The translations under genes and the position numbers were made by a program. Under the pieces are notes generated by a model. The model had not been told where the DNA came from. It saw only the letters and a program-made list of their open reading frames with translations, and made no database searches. A stretch of 64,000 nucleotides of DNA, taken from IMG/VR virus record IMGVR_UViG_3300028800_000057; one strand, written 5' to 3'. Origin of the DNA: a virus. Its lineage: Duplodnaviria; Heunggongvirae; Uroviricota; Caudoviricetes. Below, in pieces: positions 15,354 through 49,122 of this stretch; the first letter of the stretch is position 1; the number at the start of each line of letters is the position of its first letter.

Positions 15354-15617
15354 TCAGATCACCGGCTTGCGTTCGTATCTAGAGGTTCTCGACGTTGGTG
15401 GTGGGTCATCGGATAGTCGATTCCGATTCAATAGTCCCATCGGTTGAATGTGGCCTTCAATGAAGGCGCTCATGCGCTTCCATTGCTCTTTATCATAGTC
15501 GGCCGTTCCGACGGCTTTAGTCCACAGGGTGTGGAGAAGATGGTGAATCTCTTGGTCAGTTTCCATGTATGTAAGTGTACTCTTACTGACTACAGGTGTC
15601 AAGTGGTCAGCTACCAC
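15354..15617 (-). CDS. Hypothetical protein with C-terminal RYERKPVI tag
   Basis: Ends ...TSRTSRYERKPVI*. Confidence 0.45.
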   Translation of the reverse strand: MVADHLTPVVSKSTLTYMETDQEIHHLLHTLWTKAVGTADYDKEQWKRMSAFIEGHIQPMGLLNRNRLSDDPPPTSRTSRYERKPVI

Positions 15618-15700
15618 TCTACGGGACGCCAGCGGAACTGTTAAGCTTCTGTACTCAGTCTTTGACTTCTCCGATACTTTTCAAGTATAAGGTGTAAGGT

Positions 15701-17985: not shown

Positions 17986-18396
17986 GTGGCGAAGCTAAGG
18001 CTCATAGTTCAACTCATCGAGGACGATGATACTAGACACCAGAACGAAATGGACATCCCCCTGTCGGAGTTCAAAGACCCAGATCTGGTCAACGAAGAAG
18101 ACATGATACATGCCTTCAATAGTACTTTTGGGTTCTTGATGAGGAGCGCCCAACACTTCGTTAGGTATTGGCGCTTGAGTGCTGAAAACAAGGCTTACTT
18201 CGAGAGGATAGAGCAGTACGCTCGTGACCGCGGTATGGGTGATATAGGTGCAGCGGCAATGATAGCGGGGGCTATCATCACTCCTGAGGGTACGAGCCAC
18301 CTTCAACTTCCCATTCAGGTGTTAGAGCCAAAAGAAGGGGAGGACTTTCCCCGTCCAAAGTTCCCCAGTCGGTATACACGCAAGCCGGTGATCTGA
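17986..18396 (+). CDS. Hypothetical protein with C-terminal RYTRKPVI tag
   Basis: GTG start downstream of a TTGTCA-N18-TATAAA promoter-like element (17948-17977); ends PSRYTRKPVI*, with the stop overlapping the next ATG (GTGATCTGATGG). Confidence 0.5.
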   Translation: MAKLRLIVQLIEDDDTRHQNEMDIPLSEFKDPDLVNEEDMIHAFNSTFGFLMRSAQHFVRYWRLSAENKAYFERIEQYARDRGMGDIGAAAMIAGAIITPEGTSHLQLPIQVLEPKEGEDFPRPKFPSRYTRKPVI

Positions 18397-18929
18397 TGGC
18401 AGCTGAAGACATGGTCCTATTCGGTATAGCTTGTGACAAGGTAGACCGAGGAAGCATTGACGAGGCGCGCAAGCTCCTGGCTGGTAACCCAGACTTAGCC
18501 ACCCGATTGGAGATGAAGATCCGGCCGCCAGATGATGTGGGTCGGTTCTTGGAACTCAAGCGGCTAGCCCAGCTGGCATCCTTTCACCGGGGGCGAGCCT
18601 GGATTTACCAGTTGGAGGCCACCCAAGTCTGTCACTACTCTCGAACGCTGCTCAAGGACCCCCTGGGCTGGCTTACAGACTTCCTGGACAGGCAGGGACT
18701 CACCTACCAACAACGAGTGACCTTGCACTCACAGTTCTTCGACCTCTACCATGAAGAGCTGAAGTCGGTGCGCGAGATTGTCTACAATAACTGGGCTGGG
18801 TACAAGAAAGAGAGACCAAAGGGTGTTCGGTTCAAGGACTACACCCAATTCAAGTCGATGCCAGCCCCCCAAGAGTTCCCACAACCACCGAAGGTCCTGA
18901 GTCGATACGAGAGGCCTTGGGTGATCTAA
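18396..18929 (+). CDS. Hypothetical protein with C-terminal RYERPWVI tag
   Basis: Ends LSRYERPWVI*; stop overlaps the next ATG (ATCTAATGG). Confidence 0.5.
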   Translation: MAAEDMVLFGIACDKVDRGSIDEARKLLAGNPDLATRLEMKIRPPDDVGRFLELKRLAQLASFHRGRAWIYQLEATQVCHYSRTLLKDPLGWLTDFLDRQGLTYQQRVTLHSQFFDLYHEELKSVREIVYNNWAGYKKERPKGVRFKDYTQFKSMPAPQEFPQPPKVLSRYERPWVI

Positions 18930-19531
18930 TGGTAGGGTTCTTCCCATCACCAGAGGTTGCTCGGGCTGCTGGAGTCTCCAAAGACTTTCTTGATTGGATG
19001 GTGGCCACTGGGGTCAGAGATTTCGACACAGCTTGGACTACCTGTGTAGATGTGAATGCAATGACCAAGCTGCTATGGTCATTGAATCCTCAGTCCAATA
19101 ACTTGCATTGGATAGCGTTCCGAGCCGCGTCACGGACTGCTGAAGCGGAGCAAATGGACCTTGATGAGCAGCTGATCGACCACCTCGTGAACAAGCTGCA
19201 TGCTCTTGAATTAGGCACTGACTACGACGGTATGGTCGCCATTGAGCGGGCTATAGCTCTTCATCGAATCATGAGAGATGACGGACCAAGTTCCAAGGAC
19301 CAAGCTCAGCTAGCGATAGGGTGGGCTTGTTGCAAGGCATCTCTCAACTGTATAAAAGCACTCGACTGTGCCCTACGCTCAGAACGCTTCCGGCTGGGAA
19401 TGAACGATGGTCCGCACGTAGTCACCGAACCTTCTTACCAGGTGAAAGACATCCACGAGTTGTTCCCACTACCACTCACAGATTCCAGGGTTAAGTACTT
19501 GTCACGGTACGAACGACCGTGGGTTATATGA
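18929..19531 (+). CDS. Hypothetical protein with C-terminal RYERPWVI tag
   Basis: Ends LSRYERPWVI*. The ATG at 18929 is preferred over the track's TTG at 18917. Confidence 0.5.
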   Translation: MVGFFPSPEVARAAGVSKDFLDWMVATGVRDFDTAWTTCVDVNAMTKLLWSLNPQSNNLHWIAFRAASRTAEAEQMDLDEQLIDHLVNKLHALELGTDYDGMVAIERAIALHRIMRDDGPSSKDQAQLAIGWACCKASLNCIKALDCALRSERFRLGMNDGPHVVTEPSYQVKDIHELFPLPLTDSRVKYLSRYERPWVI

Positions 19532-19964
19532 CCGGCGGGCGCTCGTACCGTGAGACCCGCTTTGACTGATTTATTTTCTCTAACTCCATTTTCTCAGCGA
19601 GGCTCATGATACGAACCTTGGTCTCTTCAATCTGTTGAGTTAGTTCTTGCTGCGAAGCTATAAACTCAGCATGGTGACGAGCTACCCTTCTATCACTGTA
19701 CTTGGAAATTCGTGATATGTAGGCTAGTGCAGCAGGTCCACAACATGCTACTACGAAGACTTGGAGCTTAGGTAGCTTAGTAGGCATCAGAAAGCCTACT
19801 AAAACTATGACATAGAGCAAGATCGGTAGTTCGAAACAGGCCTTCTTCCAGGTCGGGTACTGACCCTCACCACTCTCAATTAGCGATGACAGAAGAAGAA
19901 CGATGCAAACAGCAGCCAGCACTATCGCGCATAACACTGAGAAGTTTTGGAATCTCTGCAGCAT
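19524..19964 (-). CDS. Membrane protein with C-terminal RYERPPVI tag
   Basis: Two TM helices; ends RVSRYERPPVI*. Its 3' end is convergent with 18929-19531 and overlaps it by 8 nt. Confidence 0.5.
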   Translation of the reverse strand: MLQRFQNFSVLCAIVLAAVCIVLLLSSLIESGEGQYPTWKKACFELPILLYVIVLVGFLMPTKLPKLQVFVVACCGPAALAYISRISKYSDRRVARHHAEFIASQQELTQQIEETKVRIMSLAEKMELEKINQSKRVSRYERPPVI

Positions 19965-20295: not shown

Positions 20296-21249
20296 ATGCC
20301 ACGAATAGAAGTACTAGTCCGAGTCATGCTGGACACAGGAGAGGAAGCTTCTGGAGCACGTTTCACGATTCAAGACAACTTGGTCAATGAAATACAGACT
20401 GGGTTTACTCCAGAGGGTTTGGCACGTTACTTTGGAGAGAGATTTCGTCAAAACGCTCTTCACTCCCCACATGTCCGGTTAGAGCTGCCTGAAGTAACCA
20501 CTCAAGAAATTACCTCGGTGACTTCTTGGGCTATAGAGCATCCTACCCAACGAGAAATACGAGAGGCTGTACAGCAAAGACTCGCTGAAGTACCTGTCCT
20601 GCCCGATATAGGGACAATGATCTTCCAATCATCAGCTCTAGAACGGTTAGAAAGTTATGCACAAGCTATCGGTCGTAATAGCTCTGATCTAACTGCCGAA
20701 GATCTTCAACGAGAGTCATTGACACGTGACTTTGCCCTCGATGATGACCCCGCCTTCCCAATTGAGTATCAAGGGCAATTTGCATCTGACGGTGGGCATG
20801 TTGTCACTGAAGAGGAGGTTGCCGCTCATCTGAGAGCCTTACGGAGTGCACGCCCAGAGGTGCAACGAGAACAAGGCCAAGAGATGACTGAGGTCGCGCA
20901 GAGAGTAGCCGCTGAGGCAAGGTTCCCGTCTCCTTCAAGGGAAGTGTCTCTGCCAGCGTATGATACCCCAAGTGAAGAGGTACAAGGGTTGATAGACTTG
21001 CACAGAGAGTACCCAGTCAGATTGATTCAACCGCTTCCTCAAGATAGGATGCTTGAACTTCGACGAGCCTATGCTGGATTCGGGGCTACCGCCGGAATCG
21101 AGCCGACACATCGTTTCCCTCGAAGGACATCCAGAGATATTCAAGCTGAGGGGCGAGTTGCGCGCCCAAGTAGGGGTCCAAGTACCCCGAAAAAGCCTGA
21201 GGGTAGGTCAGCGATACCCACAAGATACCACAGAAAACCGGTGATATGA
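20296..21249 (+). CDS. Hypothetical protein with C-terminal RYHRKPVI tag
   Basis: 317 aa, ends IPTRYHRKPVI*. Confidence 0.5.
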   Translation: MPRIEVLVRVMLDTGEEASGARFTIQDNLVNEIQTGFTPEGLARYFGERFRQNALHSPHVRLELPEVTTQEITSVTSWAIEHPTQREIREAVQQRLAEVPVLPDIGTMIFQSSALERLESYAQAIGRNSSDLTAEDLQRESLTRDFALDDDPAFPIEYQGQFASDGGHVVTEEEVAAHLRALRSARPEVQREQGQEMTEVAQRVAAEARFPSPSREVSLPAYDTPSEEVQGLIDLHREYPVRLIQPLPQDRMLELRRAYAGFGATAGIEPTHRFPRRTSRDIQAEGRVARPSRGPSTPKKPEGRSAIPTRYHRKPVI

Positions 21250-22081: not shown

Positions 22082-22399
22082 ATGGACATCGGCGGATACG
22101 ACATTACGGTTCCAACCAAGTTCGACCCTAAACGGACTCTCACTGAAGCTATCAAGGCAATAGAGAGCGTATGGGGTACCTCAATAGTCGAGGTTGATAG
22201 CACTGTTGAGGTGTTCGTTTACCAGTGCAAAGAAGCAGCTGAGGCTTGGGACGCGGAAGGTTGGACGGAGCAATACGGTAAGAGCATGGTGACCGTTGTA
22301 GCAATGACACCAGGAGAGTGTACATTTGTCATTGACAACAACGAGGATACGATCCTCTTGAATATTGTCGACGCCCTCACCGCTGCCCTGAAGCCCTAG
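22082..22399 (+). CDS. Hypothetical protein
   Basis: 105-aa ORF. Confidence 0.4.
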   Translation: MDIGGYDITVPTKFDPKRTLTEAIKAIESVWGTSIVEVDSTVEVFVYQCKEAAEAWDAEGWTEQYGKSMVTVVAMTPGECTFVIDNNEDTILLNIVDALTAALKP

Positions 22400-23337
22400 A
22401 TTTGGATGTTGATGGTCACTACTCGACTCGAACTACCCCATTGGGCTCCAAACTCAACGAGGAACCGAGTAGGATTCTCGTTGTAGGCTCTCCTCAAGAG
22501 ACCCTCACCAAGGTTTTGCTGAATCTCCCACGTTGGGATCTGAAGAGCGAGTGGGGCCCCCTGGGACTCATTCTGCATCCCATACATGAAAGCATTGTAG
22601 AAGGCCCCTGAGGCCACCCTAGGAGTTGATAGTATGGCATAGCGCCCAGATGGGGTTACCGTGGGCATAATAGCAGCATACGCATCTCTTTCGTTTGCCA
22701 TGTGAGCCAGCTCATTCACCACGAGCTGTACCGAACTAAAACCTCTTGTTCGGGCAACATTCGAATATGACCTGAGTCCCAGGTTACCTTGCGTACCCCC
22801 TGCTTGTCTTCCGGCATGGGTCTCGAAGGTAATGTTCGTGAGAGTGTTGCTGACCAATGCACTCTGAAGATATTGGCAATGCTCAATGTGGTAGTAAATA
22901 CCTGAGGTCAATGCATCGCGTCGAGCTGCATTCATACTGAAACACAATACATTGAGCCTCTGCCTCGGAGTCACTCCAAAGACTGGATGTGGATCCATCA
23001 TTTGCAACAGCTGGACGATTGTGTATGTGGCAATGAACTCTGCCAGCAGATCCTTACCAACCCGGCGCCCCGCTGAGAGTACCATTCCTCTACGCGGTAG
23101 GGTGCTCGTGTCTGAGACGCTACAGCGACCATTCTCAAAGAGGAACCTCAGGTACTCTTGCTCCGTGAGGGTGTAGCGTACCTGCTCTAGGAACATGTCA
23201 TGGACGATGATTGTCCGTTGAGTGCTGTCTAGTTCGAGTCCGTAGTAGAGCTTAAGAATGAACCGCTGAACAGGGTACAATGTCCAACCAAGACCCTCGG
23301 GTCCTTCCACATACTCCAAGATGCTGTTGAACGGCAT
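22396..23337 (-). CDS. Terminase-large-subunit-like ATPase domain protein (no nuclease domain; non-canonical Walker motifs)
   Basis: Q-motif-like LYPVQRFIL; Walker A-like LSAGRRVGKD (compare the terminase GRRxGKT/S); Walker B-like VQLVVNELA (NE instead of DE); coupling-motif-like AILSTP. Only 313 aa. Confidence 0.45.
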   Translation of the reverse strand: MPFNSILEYVEGPEGLGWTLYPVQRFILKLYYGLELDSTQRTIIVHDMFLEQVRYTLTEQEYLRFLFENGRCSVSDTSTLPRRGMVLSAGRRVGKDLLAEFIATYTIVQLLQMMDPHPVFGVTPRQRLNVLCFSMNAARRDALTSGIYYHIEHCQYLQSALVSNTLTNITFETHAGRQAGGTQGNLGLRSYSNVARTRGFSSVQLVVNELAHMANERDAYAAIMPTVTPSGRYAILSTPRVASGAFYNAFMYGMQNESQGAPLALQIPTWEIQQNLGEGLLRRAYNENPTRFLVEFGAQWGSSSRVVTINIQI

Positions 23338-23358: not shown

Positions 23359-23781
23359 CTAAATTACCCACTTGCGTTCGTATCGAGTAAGAATCACTCG
23401 AGTATCTGGTTCGTTCGCCGGTTCAAGGTTGATGAAGTCGTAGTCCGCGCGGTATGCCGTAGCGCAGAGTTTTGGAAGCCTACATTGATTGGGCTTCTTC
23501 CTTGATAGATCGTTCCTTCTCTCATAGCAATCTGGGCAAAGAGTAGGAGACCCAGGCTTTCGTCGACAATCGTCACACTCAAAGTAGTTGGAGGCTAAGA
23601 AGACCGAGTGGAGATAGTCGATGCGAGTACAGTGCGTACCCGTACCAGGTTCCTTCTCTCTGGCCCAAACGAATCGTCCCTTGACCTTAGTCACTTGGTA
23701 CAAGGCCTCTGGGCTATCCTTGTCTCGGAGCCAGAGGCCAACTTTAACCCAACCTGGCATCGGTGGTATTTGAAGTGGCAT
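23359..23781 (-). CDS. Cys-rich protein with C-terminal RYERKWVI tag
   Basis: CTRIDYLH...FECDDCRRKPGSPTLCPDCYERR; ends ILTRYERKWVI*. Confidence 0.5.
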   Translation of the reverse strand: MPLQIPPMPGWVKVGLWLRDKDSPEALYQVTKVKGRFVWAREKEPGTGTHCTRIDYLHSVFLASNYFECDDCRRKPGSPTLCPDCYERRNDLSRKKPNQCRLPKLCATAYRADYDFINLEPANEPDTRVILTRYERKWVI

Positions 23782-24615: not shown

Positions 24616-25134
24616 ATGACAATTCGTATAGCACTTCCTAATGGAAACGTGGAGTTTGATACCTTAGAGGACGCACTCGGGTTCTACAGGGGAATTTACA
24701 AGGGAGCAGCCCCAAAGTCAACGAGTCCAAACGGCAATGGGGTGAAGCTGGCTCTTCGACCGTTGAATAACAACGGTCCAGTAAACCTGTTGGAGGCCAT
24801 CCAAGTAGTGATTGGCAACCAAGAGGTCTCGGTCGCCGACGTCAAGTCTGGTCTAAAGTCCCATGGTTGGCTGCCAAAGAGCAAGGACCTGATCAGCTAT
24901 CTTCGGTACACGCTCAAGACGAACAAGGAGATCTTCATCAGTCGAAAGTTGAAGGAGGGCAAGCGAGTCTTGTACCACTTGAGCAAGACCAACCCTTATT
25001 GCAAGCCAGTGGATCGTCCTATCCGAGCTAGCACTCGTCGGCGTCTTCGGAAGGCTTCTCCGACCATAATCGCGGGACCGGTCAAAGCCCACAAGAGCAA
25101 GGTGAGGGTTAAGGTGAAGACGGCTCAAGCCTAA
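24616..25134 (+). CDS. Basic protein, possible winged-helix/linker-histone-like DNA-binding protein
   Basis: 172 aa, pI clearly basic; the C-terminal RRRLRKASP...KAHKSKVRVKVK tail and a central segment are loosely H15-like (weak). Confidence 0.4.
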   Translation: MTIRIALPNGNVEFDTLEDALGFYRGIYKGAAPKSTSPNGNGVKLALRPLNNNGPVNLLEAIQVVIGNQEVSVADVKSGLKSHGWLPKSKDLISYLRYTLKTNKEIFISRKLKEGKRVLYHLSKTNPYCKPVDRPIRASTRRRLRKASPTIIAGPVKAHKSKVRVKVKTAQA

Positions 25135-25177: not shown

Positions 25178-25879
25178 ATGTCCATACTAGACGACCTATC
25201 AGAGGGGTTTGCAGAGAGCGTCAAGCTCCTCATCAAGTTGGCGGACGGCATCAAGGACGATAGCGACCGAGATACTCCAGAGATGCAAGAAGCTGAAGAC
25301 AGAGCCGAGAGGCTCTGGTACGAGCTCAATGACACGGACACAATCATTCTCGATGCCATGTCGGCGGACCTCTGGTACTTAGCTGACGAAGGTCCACTCA
25401 AGGGCAAGGAGCCTACCCTCGAGCTTCGAGGAGGTTATGAACGAGCCAAGCAAGATGACAACTTGCTTGGTATCGCTTGGTCGCTCCACGAGTGTGCTAA
25501 GCTTGCCTCCGGGGTTGAGGGGGCTCGGGTTCGTCTTCACCTGTGGAAGTCTCTCAAGCAAGAGGAAATGACCCGACGCTTTGAAGTCCTGTGGACTCGT
25601 GAGAAGTTCAAGGAGTTTCGGAGCCAATGGCACAAGGACACCCAGTTCTTGTCTTTCATCAACTCTGACCATCCGGCCTATCAGGAGATCATCAAGTTGG
25701 GCATGCCAGTGGTTCCAATCCTTCTAGAGGAGATGCGTGACGACCCTGATTGGTGGGGGATCGCTCTAGCGGCTATCACCGGGGAGAACCCCTGCAAGTT
25801 CCCTGAGATGTCTGGAAACCTTGCAATGATCTCCAAAGCATGGGTAGAGTGGGGGGTAGCGCGAGGACTAATTAAGTGA
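25178..25879 (+). CDS. Hypothetical protein
   Basis: 233-aa ORF. Confidence 0.45.
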   Translation: MSILDDLSEGFAESVKLLIKLADGIKDDSDRDTPEMQEAEDRAERLWYELNDTDTIILDAMSADLWYLADEGPLKGKEPTLELRGGYERAKQDDNLLGIAWSLHECAKLASGVEGARVRLHLWKSLKQEEMTRRFEVLWTREKFKEFRSQWHKDTQFLSFINSDHPAYQEIIKLGMPVVPILLEEMRDDPDWWGIALAAITGENPCKFPEMSGNLAMISKAWVEWGVARGLIK

Positions 25880-26352
25880 GAACTATTCAGGTCAATTGGT
25901 TAGAATCTCCACATTACATGGTACTATACCAGCGAGATAGACCTGGGATGGTTCTTGTCGCAGATGATAAGATGTGGGGTGTGAAGGCTCCACCTGAAGA
26001 TGCTGGTGGATCTGGATTTAGTCTACCTCTCTGCAGTGCAACAGACCCTATGATTGACTCTCAGTTCAAGAATGCACTTCAGACCCGATTGCAGATGCTT
26101 GTGGTCTACGCCTGGCAACAAGGGTTACTCGATCAAGTAACCTTCTTTGGGGTTATTCACAACTACCGCCAGAACATCATGATCGGGATGGGGTACTCGA
26201 CGGTAAACGTCCTTCCTCGCTTCGACCACACTCCTAGCAGCTTATTCAAGTATTTACCGTCTGAATTCGAGGTAGACATAGATAGTATACTAGGGACACA
26301 AGCACGTGCACGGTCTCAGAGGTCTCGTTACGATCGCCCTTGGGTAGTCTGA
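25876..26352 (+). CDS. Hypothetical protein with C-terminal RYDRPWVV tag variant
   Basis: Ends RSRYDRPWVV*. Confidence 0.5.
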   Translation: MRTIQVNWLESPHYMVLYQRDRPGMVLVADDKMWGVKAPPEDAGGSGFSLPLCSATDPMIDSQFKNALQTRLQMLVVYAWQQGLLDQVTFFGVIHNYRQNIMIGMGYSTVNVLPRFDHTPSSLFKYLPSEFEVDIDSILGTQARARSQRSRYDRPWVV

Positions 26353-45710: not shown

Positions 45711-46176
45711 AGTACCTGTATCTCCATACCTCGCCCGTGAATACTTGGTTGGCTAGGTCGTACTCCATGCCAACTTCTATGGTCTTCTCAGGGTTAGTGT
45801 CCCAAGAAGATACCTTGAAGGACACACCCTGGTGTGCCCCAGAGGTTGCGTCGACCCACCTGACGCTCATGTGATCTCCGGTATCAAGGTTGAATAGTCC
45901 AACTCCAATCCGTTTGGCCACAAGGGAAGTTTGACGTCTAGTTCTAAGATCTTCCTCCCACTCAACGATGTTCTCCCAAGTCACATCAGAGAATTGTGGA
46001 ATCTCAGAGGTGGGTAGGCTACGAGATTCGAACTTACGTGGGATAGTCTGAAGAGCTGCGTTGACGGCCTCCTTACACTCCGGACAATAGTCAGTGCAGG
46101 ACTCTCGAGAGCGGTTGTAGGAGTTCCACAGATAGATGATCTGGCAGTTCTTGCATCGGATGTAGCGTTCGATCAT
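45700..46176 (-). CDS. Zinc-ribbon protein
   Basis: CKNCQ...CTDYCPECKE; its start ATG overlaps the tagged upstream gene's stop (ATATGA). Confidence 0.4.
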   Translation of the reverse strand: MIERYIRCKNCQIIYLWNSYNRSRESCTDYCPECKEAVNAALQTIPRKFESRSLPTSEIPQFSDVTWENIVEWEEDLRTRRQTSLVAKRIGVGLFNLDTGDHMSVRWVDATSGAHQGVSFKVSSWDTNPEKTIEVGMEYDLANQVFTGEVWRYRYYAP

Positions 46177-46424
46177 ATCACTGGGTCCCTCTCGTACCGA
46201 GTCTTCACCCTGGACCGATTCTGAATATCCAAGTTTACAGCTATAATGAAGTCCCTCTTAGTATTGAACTTAGCTCGAATAGAGGAGCTATCGTTCCAAA
46301 TGGCTGTGAACAATTCAGAGAACAAGCTGAGGGTGATCTCCTCAGCAGGCTTACCTGAGATACCATTGTCCTCTAGTACCCCCTCAACTGCCTCGATGAA
46401 CTTGAGGAAGCGAGATTTGTTCAT
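46173..46424 (-). CDS. Small protein with C-terminal RYERDPVI tag (paralog of 46421-46729)
   Basis: Ends KTRYERDPVI*; the shared core with its neighbour is I...W......I..KF.T...F. Confidence 0.5.
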   Translation of the reverse strand: MNKSRFLKFIEAVEGVLEDNGISGKPAEEITLSLFSELFTAIWNDSSSIRAKFNTKRDFIIAVNLDIQNRSRVKTRYERDPVI

Positions 46425-46729
46425 ATCACGGGGTCCCGTTCGTAGCGGCTCTTGATCCTAGTCACTGCAGGTTTTGAGTCAGGATCTACGAGTCGTGTCT
46501 TGACCACGTGTACCCTGAAGCTATCGAATGTTTTGAACTTAGACTTGATAGCATCATTGTTGTCCCAGGCTGCCCTAATAACTCTATCAAGCACTGAGAT
46601 GACGGTGGTCTCGGCAACCTCACTACTGATGTTGTCCTCCTTCATAGCATTCATCACCGAAGTGACAAGCTTGAGGTAGGCTGAGTTAGCCATGGCCCGT
46701 GTAGAACTCCCAAGATTCTTGCTCTTCAC
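46421..46729 (-). CDS. Small protein with C-terminal RYERDPVI tag (paralog of 46173-46424)
   Basis: Ends KSRYERDPVI*. Confidence 0.5.
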   Translation of the reverse strand: MKSKNLGSSTRAMANSAYLKLVTSVMNAMKEDNISSEVAETTVISVLDRVIRAAWDNNDAIKSKFKTFDSFRVHVVKTRLVDPDSKPAVTRIKSRYERDPVI

Positions 46730-46949
46730 TCCAACACCAACCGAGTTCCTTGAGTTGGTTTATCTCTGCGGTTGTGAAGGACAAGTCGGTATCTGGGCTC
46801 TCTAATGGTCCAACATAGACTCCCTTATCCAACCCAATCAAGGTGACTTTAGGTTTGTGCTTTTGGATGATCCGAATGCCTTGGAGGATCTTGAGGGCTA
46901 TCTCCTCAGCTGGGGATCCAGGCTCGTTATCTTCAGGAAGAGTGTTCAT
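46686..46949 (-). CDS. Hypothetical protein
   Basis: 87-aa ORF. Confidence 0.35.
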   Translation of the reverse strand: MNTLPEDNEPGSPAEEIALKILQGIRIIQKHKPKVTLIGLDKGVYVGPLESPDTDLSFTTAEINQLKELGWCWSEEQESWEFYTGHG

Positions 46950-48149: not shown

Positions 48150-48596
48150 CTATATGACCCACCCTCGTTCATACCTTGATATTCGTCGAGGTATTTCCTG
48201 AGGGCCCCAGTCAAAGGGCTTCTCTGGCTCACGAATCATGGACTCGAATTGAGGGACGACTTGCTTGTTTGTGTAGAACAACCCATATCGAACGAGAGAC
48301 CCAGGCCTCTCGTACCAGGTCACGAGGTTCATGACCCCATCAACGATACCGAAACCAAACCAGTTTTTGGAGATGAGCCTGGCACCTCCGGCCTTAGCCA
48401 GTTCCTCGATGGTATTGATGGTGGCCTGCTGTAGGTGGACAGTAACAAGATGATCGCCACAATCATCTGCTGAATAGGGTGCTAGTAGATGATCTATGCC
48501 GCAAAACACGTACCCTTTACATCCGCTGGTAAGCCTAAAGTAGACTTGGTCCTCCTCTTGGTGAAGATCATGCCATAGAGTAGTAATTGCCATCAA
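48150..48596 (-). CDS. Hypothetical protein with C-terminal RYERGWVI tag
   Basis: Ends ISRYERGWVI*. Confidence 0.5.
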   Translation of the reverse strand: MMAITTLWHDLHQEEDQVYFRLTSGCKGYVFCGIDHLLAPYSADDCGDHLVTVHLQQATINTIEELAKAGGARLISKNWFGFGIVDGVMNLVTWYERPGSLVRYGLFYTNKQVVPQFESMIREPEKPFDWGPQEIPRRISRYERGWVI

Positions 48597-48946
48597 ATCA
48601 CCGGTTTACGTTCGTATCTAGTGGGTATTGATGCCTTGTCAACTGCCTTGGCAAATCGTTCTCTGAACTCTGAGTTTGATCCTAGTGCATGCTCCAAGTC
48701 CATTGCATACTTCCAGTGCTCGTCACAGAGAGGGATCGGTTGACCCTCCTTATCGGGATCTTCCAGGTGATGGGTCACCGGCTTTGAGCAGGGTTTGAAT
48801 AGGCCTGCACAGACTTCAGGTTCATCCGCCATCGCCCACCCCATCAGATTCTGATAATCCTTCATCCTCATTAACCGCTGATGGAACCCCTTGCCCAGGA
48901 TGAGAGAGTTGCAAACCATTCGGACAGAGCCTCTGAATGGTTTCAA
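48593..48946 (-). CDS. Hypothetical protein with C-terminal RYERKPVI tag
   Basis: Ends IPTRYERKPVI*; stop overlaps the next ATG (GTGATTTGATGG). Confidence 0.5.
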   Translation of the reverse strand: MKPFRGSVRMVCNSLILGKGFHQRLMRMKDYQNLMGWAMADEPEVCAGLFKPCSKPVTHHLEDPDKEGQPIPLCDEHWKYAMDLEHALGSNSEFRERFAKAVDKASIPTRYERKPVI

Positions 48947-49122
48947 ACCATCCGTAGATCATCAGGTTCTCCACCCACGTGACCAAGTCCTGGAAACTAA
49001 GGACATCATCACCTACCCCGGTACAGGGGCATCATTTGTGATATCAAATATGTCAATCCACGGGTTAAATGCTGTATCCGTTGTGGCAGAGGCTGGTAAT
49101 ACTGACACTTACTCCCTGAGAG

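Follow-up and report, generated by a model that had tools for sequence, protein, structure and literature searches.

A stand-alone TerL-type ATPase gene in a huge phage, probably an accessory paralog of the large terminase subunit with a rewired nucleotide site

The stretch of DNA analyzed here (64,000 nucleotides, hereafter the window) belongs to IMG/VR virus record IMGVR_UViG_3300028800_000057, a member of the Caudoviricetes with a genome of ~443 kb. At 22396..23337 on the minus strand, the window contains a gene of 313 amino acids (aa) plus a stop codon, with an ATG start, whose product has the ATPase domain of a large terminase subunit (TerL) and terminates in the linker that joins the ATPase to the nuclease in complete TerLs. 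With moderate confidence, this gene is interpreted as encoding an accessory TerL-ATPase paralog that stands alone and whose nucleotide site has been rewired; the canonical TerL of the phage would be encoded elsewhere in the genome. Stand-alone TerL-ATPase genes apparently form a widespread, undescribed class in uncultivated large and huge phages, and the literature searched contained no account of paralogs of this kind.

An earlier note on this DNA, made by a model from the letters alone, had described a terminase-like ATPase domain with degenerate Walker motifs and no nuclease domain on either side. Translation confirmed that the 313-aa open reading frame (ORF) and its four motifs are present at the positions given, all on the minus strand. 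The adenine-binding or Q-like motif LYPVQ occupies aa 20-24 (23266..23280), and its P22, V23 and Q24 are invariant across the window clade, a group of 21 homologs found on contigs reaching 443 kb. The Walker A motif GRRVGKD (aa 90-96, 23050..23070) retains Lys95 and has Asp instead of Ser/Thr at position 96, while the Walker B motif LVVNE (aa 205-209, 22711..22725) has Asn instead of Asp at position 208 and retains the catalytic Glu209. The Walker motifs are therefore degenerate as described, with GKD at Walker A and NE at Walker B. The coupling (C) motif ILSTP (aa 235-239, 22621..22635) includes an invariant T238. The protein ends in the tail SRVVTINIQI (22399..22428, minus strand), which follows the clade pattern R-x-V-x-I-x-h-x-[VI]-stop.

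The homology of this protein to TerL is weak against curated models but strong by fold and by family profile. The match to PHROG_2 'terminase large subunit' had an E-value of 1.9e-7, that to Pfam PF03237 (Terminase_6N) reached 13.5 bits (E 0.057), under the gathering threshold of 22 bits, and that to T4 gp17 in the PDB by sequence had an E-value of 1.4. A faint match to PF27249 (MJ0330_N) was not used. A search of PDB sequences with a profile of the ATPase alignment returned a spurious match only, and a fold search was required. The AlphaFold2 (AF2) model, built with an alignment of 20 homologous sequences, had a predicted local distance difference test score (pLDDT) of 88 and a predicted template modeling score (pTM) of 0.89. 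In Foldseek, PDB ranks 1-31 were all TerLs or TerL ATPase domains (P74-26, T4 gp17, Sf6, HK97, D6E and T7). Because the AF2 model is confident and its top matches are all TerLs, the window protein is assigned, on the basis of this model, as a TerL-type P-loop ATPase domain of the ASCE (additional strand, catalytic glutamate) group with a lid. In addition, the family profile matched full-length TerLs with E-values of 1e-60 to 1e-71. Fold, PHROG and family profile together bear out the terminase-like ATPase domain of the earlier note. The first residues of the C-terminal tail align with the start of the linker in full-length TerLs; the tail has a pLDDT below 50 in the model and may be a docking strand. 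Overall, the protein has the ATPase fold of a complete TerL, without a nuclease in the same polypeptide and without canonical Walker motifs.

The best structural match was the TerL ATPase domain of P74-26 (4znk, 4znl; E 7e-10, target TM-score 0.71). The two are 14-16% identical, and the P74-26 structure is a crystallized fragment of a full-length TerL, whereas the window protein is the product of a natural stand-alone gene. The ATPase domain of T4 gp17-type TerLs (2o0h, 2o0j, 3cpe; Terminase_6N) shares with it the ASCE fold, the Q-like motif, a P-loop with arginines, the catalytic Glu of Walker B and the S/T-T-P coupling motif. In contrast to the T4 gp17 type, the window protein has no C-terminal nuclease, carries GKD and NE in its Walker motifs, and scores 13.5 bits against the 22 bits needed for Terminase_6N. 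Its nearest sequence relatives are the full-length TerLs of huge phages (P0023, L019 = P0271, LR745208.1 and Tunturi_5), with 27-35% identity over the whole ATPase domain. Profile searches pass continuously from these proteins to the window protein but, unlike it, they add a nuclease of ~270 aa and keep strictly canonical Walker motifs.

The wider family consists of complete TerLs and ATPase-only proteins. A HMMER search with the clade profile identified 1812 relatives among the representatives of 50%-identity clusters, and classes were counted in the best 150 of the 1812 matches, which comprise 147 sequences besides the window clade's own representatives. Complete TerLs, in which the ATPase is followed by a nuclease tail of ~250-290 aa and many of which contain inteins, account for 98 of the 147. 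The other 49 are ATPase-only, and most of them end within a few residues of position 299 of the hidden Markov model (HMM). The window protein likewise ends at HMM position ~299, just after an EYGAxF/W motif, and it fits the ATPase-only genes (~300-330 aa) in length, domain content and end point. The 49 representatives and 21 window-family sequences, which have no nuclease domain, make up the set of 70 ATPase-only sequences used below. No informative fused domains were found with Pfam in the longer ATPase-only members. In a neighbor-joining (NJ) tree, the nearest neighbors of the window clade were ATPase-only in 200/200 bootstrap replicates, with P0026 joining the clade at 98% and P0024 at 81%.

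The huge phages among the IMG/VR relatives measure 180-530 kb and have complete TerLs. Among GenBank phages, the closest are Tunturiibacter phage Tunturi_5 (309 kb) and an uncultured phage of 485 kb; in each of the two, one TerL is annotated or inferred. Members of the window clade itself were found neither in IMG/VR, with ATPase and MVP (major vault protein) queries, nor among GenBank phages. The related full-length TerLs are also hot-spots for inteins, with one to three in each (L031-L038, L069 10973-14317, L085-L100, and P0027-P0168 over 850 aa). The commonest insertion splits the Walker A motif exactly after its Lys and before its Ser/Thr (GK^C...HN^[ST]), and others occur near HMM positions 40, 180 and 225 and, in P0084, at the ATPase-nuclease junction.

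Seven contigs carry both an ATPase-only gene and a complete TerL, either adjacent or ~6-9 kb apart. On IMGVR_UViG_3300035182_002586 (529 kb), a 296-aa paralog lies 9 kb from TerL, and on Logan contig SRR12901004_4532 a 308-aa paralog (P0155) lies 7 kb downstream. The paralog of Ga0209777_10001206 (P0040, locus L058) is a recent duplicate, 88% identical to its TerL. On Ga0180432_10029588, OJEP01000177.1, Ga0306906_1000019 (P0069) and Ga0102940_1058113, the paralog stands directly upstream of TerL, a slot usually held by the small terminase gene; the paralogs adjoining TerL on these four metagenomic contigs are at L062 581-1525, L068 8943-9917, L069 9953-10969 and L108 552-1451. Because these seven contigs also carry a complete TerL, ATPase-only TerL genes are, where enough sequence can be read, additional copies that accompany an ordinary terminase. 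Their origin is not a single event. Each co-resident paralog shares 22-39% identity with the TerL encoded alongside it, and the 33-35% identity of the window protein to canonical huge-phage TerLs falls in the same range.

Further evidence on the importance of the gene comes from a related lineage in which its ortholog is a pseudogene. Three Joint Genome Institute (JGI) contigs of one related phage (~100 kb contig size) retain the synteny of the window, and the ortholog (L055 3945-4455; L056 and L057 10001-10511) has an internal deletion of ~135 codons, which removes Walker B and the C motif, as well as a frameshift. Around it, the MVP-like gene, the upstream genes of 106 and 140 aa and the convergent downstream gene are intact. 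This argues that the ATPase-only gene is dispensable, and a role as the sole essential packaging ATPase is hard to reconcile with an ortholog that is a pseudogene in this phage.

The changes in the Walker motifs follow a consistent pattern. The ancestral state in the window clade is canonical, GRRTGK[ST] with hhhhDE, and within the clade only the sub-clade of the window departs from it (198/200 NJ bootstraps). There, the window protein (P0001), P0002 and P0003 have GKD with NE, and P0004, P0005 and P0007 have GKN with NE. One or more of four positions (the P-loop Lys, the Walker A Ser/Thr, the Walker B Asp and the catalytic Glu) are non-canonical in 28 of the 70 ATPase-only sequences. Complete TerLs (n = 194), by comparison, keep the Ser/Thr and the catalytic Glu in 100% of cases and the Asp in 192/194; an apparent loss of Lys to Asn in full TerLs was rejected as an artefact of inteins at GK^C...HN^[ST]. 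The two sites also co-vary. The Walker B Asp is absent from 11 of the 13 ATPase-only sequences without the Walker A Ser/Thr and from 1 of the 57 with it (Fisher's exact p = 4e-10, uncorrected for phylogeny). These paired substitutions, D/N for the S/T of Walker A and N/Q/E/S for the D of Walker B, appear on at least five separate branches, namely those of the window sub-clade, P0036, P0110, P0116 and P0115/P0142. Because the Walker A and B changes are coupled and recurrent, we infer a compensated rewiring of Mg2+ coordination rather than random decay. The window protein retains Lys95, Arg91/92, Glu209 and the STP motif. Judging from these residues, it probably still binds nucleotide, and its hydrolysis chemistry is probably altered or slowed.

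The gene is complete and uninterrupted. Full-length proteins of 305-318 aa with the N-terminus MPF (MSF in one) make up 19 of the 21 window-clade homologs, and all but one of the 19 have the short hydrophobic C-terminal tail. The remaining two are a fragment of 228 aa and P0021, which has 459 aa with an N-terminal extension. The position of the stop codon is kept in 20 orthologs. Additionally, a conserved convergent gene of 105 aa (22082..22399, plus strand) overlaps the stop of the ATPase gene by 4 nucleotides, an arrangement shared by the window and loci L001, L002, L045, L048 and L056. Because this gene overlaps the stop, a downstream nuclease exon is ruled out. The ratio of nonsynonymous to synonymous substitution rates (dN/dS) was 0.27 against an ortholog of 87% identity and 0.20 against one of 73% identity, which indicates that the gene is functional and under purifying selection. 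The earlier note had listed an intron or intein among its possible explanations. A gene split in this way, or a pseudogene remnant, is rejected as so improbable as to be nearly negligible, even though inteins abound in the related TerLs, at GK^[ST] and other sites, and one ortholog has truly decayed. Specifically, a gathering-threshold Rfam scan of the window returned 0 matches of any kind, hence no group I or II intron. The family HMM matches the window ATPase continuously from position 1 to 311, which leaves no room for an intein, and many contigs carry the ORF intact at 46-87% identity. The AceL-TerL system of atypical split inteins in phage TerL genes, in which TerL is reportedly divided by nature between two ORFs, the N-terminal one ending in a short tail, is similar in its broken TerL gene. 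In the clade alignment, by contrast, no nucleophile (Cys, Ser or Thr) is conserved in the tail, which also has no intein block A; no C-intein-nuclease partner was found either. Without a nucleophile, the tail was rejected as the short N-terminal part of such a split intein.

Searches for a nuclease were equally negative. A nuclease HMM was built from 92 nuclease tails of the nearest full-length relatives and run with --max on six-frame translations. These tails carry the motifs GxDxG...DGTA, FDQW and GKHDDxSDA, and their profile matches the nuclease domain of HK97 TerL (6z6d) with an E-value of 8e-4; the full-length relatives themselves match PHROG TerL families over both domains, P0023 for instance with PHROG_2 at E 1e-21 over aa 30-616. 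The nuclease HMM had no match in the window, in the 8.9 kb before its start (L040) or in the 7.5 kb past its end (L109), and thus no nuclease coding sequence within 31 kb downstream or 48 kb upstream of the ATPase gene. The 20-kb loci of two window-clade relatives likewise gave no match. Aligned with hhalign to the nuclease profile, all 89 window ORFs of at least 120 aa reached a probability of at most 4%, and PHROG and Pfam scans of 130 ORFs produced a single TerL match, the target itself, with no portal and no capsid. The absence of a nuclease domain on either side, as first described, thus holds in the window and ~16 kb of flanking sequence. A protein search with the nuclease profile recovered only close relatives of the queries, mostly fragments, and two candidates for stand-alone nucleases were rejected, being cut by a contig end or a frameshift.

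Based on the current evidence, the explanation favored here is that of an accessory paralog. It stops in the linker where full-length TerLs continue into an RNase-H-like nuclease, and cutting and the main translocation would fall to a canonical TerL encoded in another part of the ~443 kb genome. The paralog itself would assist or regulate the packaging machinery, perhaps interacting with TerL or the portal; a packaging role is suggested because paralogs lie directly upstream of TerL on four contigs, in the usual place of the small terminase. In the window sub-lineage, the Mg2+-ligating pair would have been rewired by the replacement of the Walker A Thr/Ser with Asp/Asn together with that of the Walker B Asp with Asn, and a carboxylate or amide for Mg2+ coordination would be supplied from the Walker A position. 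The earlier note had included an inactivated ATPase-fold paralog among its four readings. Paralogy is the best supported of the four, while the word 'inactivated' goes too far in view of the dN/dS ratios and of the coupled, recurrent changes. Several observations weigh against the accessory interpretation. No canonical TerL was seen in the ~80 kb examined of the ~443 kb genome, nor within 10 kb of the gene in the clade relatives L001, L002, L045, L048 and L056. A pure ATPase-only clade uniting the window clade with the proven co-resident paralogs has moderate support, in ~55% of NJ bootstraps, while support for the two as direct sisters is 0%. Since ATPase-only genes have originated repeatedly, as the 88% identical duplicate in L058 illustrates, other lineages may not speak for that of the window. 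Lastly, the pseudogene is known from three contigs that are possibly re-assemblies of related samples. A more ambitious proposal is tentative: huge phages may carry a second, dedicated TerL-derived ATPase subunit that works with the canonical terminase, for example by regulating or initiating packaging from the usual small-terminase slot, or by occupying a place without catalysis in a mixed motor ring. Its nucleotide site would repeatedly have been rebuilt into a swapped form, the acidic Mg2+ ligand shifting from Walker B to the Ser/Thr position of Walker A. In its boldest form, the protein would be the sole, nuclease-free packaging ATPase of an MVP-encoding clade.

The other explanations dispense with a second terminase or with packaging altogether. 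In a split terminase, the window gene would encode the only TerL ATPase and a separate gene the nuclease half, the two assembling in trans, perhaps via the beta-strand tail. The common linker end point of 20 clade members, their conserved amphipathic tail, the purifying selection and the lack of a second TerL in ~80 kb would all fit such an arrangement. It is nevertheless unlikely: no stand-alone nuclease gene occurs in the window, its flanks or the window-clade loci, the apparent nuclease-only proteins that were checked proved to be truncated, and the partner on the seven co-residence contigs is a complete TerL rather than a nuclease-only fragment. Moreover, an essential sole ATPase is not expected to lose Walker residues or to be a pseudogene in L056. 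The protein could alternatively be a phi29 gp16-like motor for a unit-length genome that needs no cutting. The gp16 protein is also an ASCE packaging ATPase without an active nuclease; its C-terminal domain resembles a nuclease but is vestigial, and it acts together with packaging RNA (pRNA) on protein-primed, unit-length genomes. An ATPase domain with no nuclease in ~80 kb would fit such a motor. The window protein, however, has no gp16-like C-terminal domain, its closest folds and sequences are TerLs of the T4, P74-26 and Sf6 types, and gp16 is not among its detected relatives, falling outside the top 50 PDB matches. The altered Walker motifs and the pseudogene count against this motor as they do against a split terminase. 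In addition, according to a review of 224 jumbo phages, all of them have TerL, and the RNase H-fold nuclease of TerL is universal in Caudovirales (PMC7824862). A gp16-like motor is therefore very improbable. Both it and the split terminase are disfavored because seven contigs pair an ATPase-only gene with a complete TerL and because the clade includes a pseudogene. Finally, the ATPase may have been exapted for a role outside packaging, as a DNA translocase or as a mimic or sponge for host sensors of TerL (Avs-type). The gene lies outside any structural module, its catalytic site is altered, and its synteny 2-7 kb from the MVP-shoulder protein is kept across the clade. The Avs3-TerL complex 8dgc is among the structural matches, but only because that entry contains a TerL. 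Exaptation is judged unlikely, as the paralogs abutting TerL on four contigs point to packaging and no informative domain fusions were found in the longer family members.

The neighborhood of the gene is one of nucleotide metabolism and regulation, with two sigma factors, an RNA ligase, an NAD kinase, a deoxyribosyltransferase, HD hydrolases, a GmrSD_N protein and a response regulator, alongside a tail-fibre-like protein and many small ORFs of unknown function. It also encodes the MVP_shoulder protein of 882 aa (30759-33407, minus strand; Pfam MVP_shoulder, E 1.2e-10), which is 67-82% identical and syntenic in L001, L002, L048 and L056, 2-7 kb from the ATPase gene. No relatives of this protein were found in IMG/VR with the patterns tried, and literature searches found no paper linking MVP to phages.

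In addition, 16 otherwise unrelated small proteins of the window (94-330 aa) share the C-terminal peptide [ST/N]-R-Y-E-R-x-[PW]-V-I-stop. Their ORFs are located on the minus strand at 1819-2349, 2349-2696, 15354-15680, 19524-19964, 23359-23781, 33992-34447, 34448-34957, 46173-46457, 46421-46759, 48150-48596 and 48593-48958, and on the plus strand at 17986-18396, 18396-18929, 18917-19531, 20296-21249 and 25876-26352. The element is shared as a peptide tag rather than as a DNA repeat, because its codons vary synonymously and the DNA downstream is unconserved. It may be a signal for targeting, cargo loading or virion packaging, which is intriguing beside an MVP-like shell protein. The gene immediately upstream of the ATPase gene has the tag, and the ATPase does not.

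A protein of 172 aa (24616-25134, plus strand) with a strongly basic C-terminal tail is conserved in L048 and may be a DNA-binding neighbor. It shows a weak similarity (34% over 47 aa, E 9e-6) to an ORF at L044 15015-15155, which lies 4 kb from the ATPase-only paralog of the 529 kb phage. Two adjacent ORFs of 452 and 415 aa (58887-60245 and 60242-61489, both minus strand) have weak C-terminal matches to the putative zinc metallopeptidases Peptidase_Mx/Peptidase_Mx1 (E ~0.03-0.05) and could be paralogs of each other. Near-identical or related copies of the genome differ by insertion sequences (IS), at L040 14188-15399, L109 and L110 6972-8204, and L002 12901-14121. Some assemblies have a DDE_Tnp_1 transposase just beyond the window at either end, and L002 has an IS605 OrfB/TnpB. 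This phage population thus appears to have active mobile elements.

TerL is a universal marker for the classification of tailed phages and for inferring their packaging strategies. Approximately one third of the closest 50%-identity clusters are ATPase-only paralogs, which are open to mis-annotation as 'the terminase'. Such paralogs could distort TerL phylogenies of huge phages and falsely suggest split or broken genes. The recurrent, coupled substitution of Walker A and B residues provides a natural experiment on Mg2+ coordination in ASCE ATPases. Overall, the paralog points to an unstudied accessory part of the machinery that packages very large genomes.

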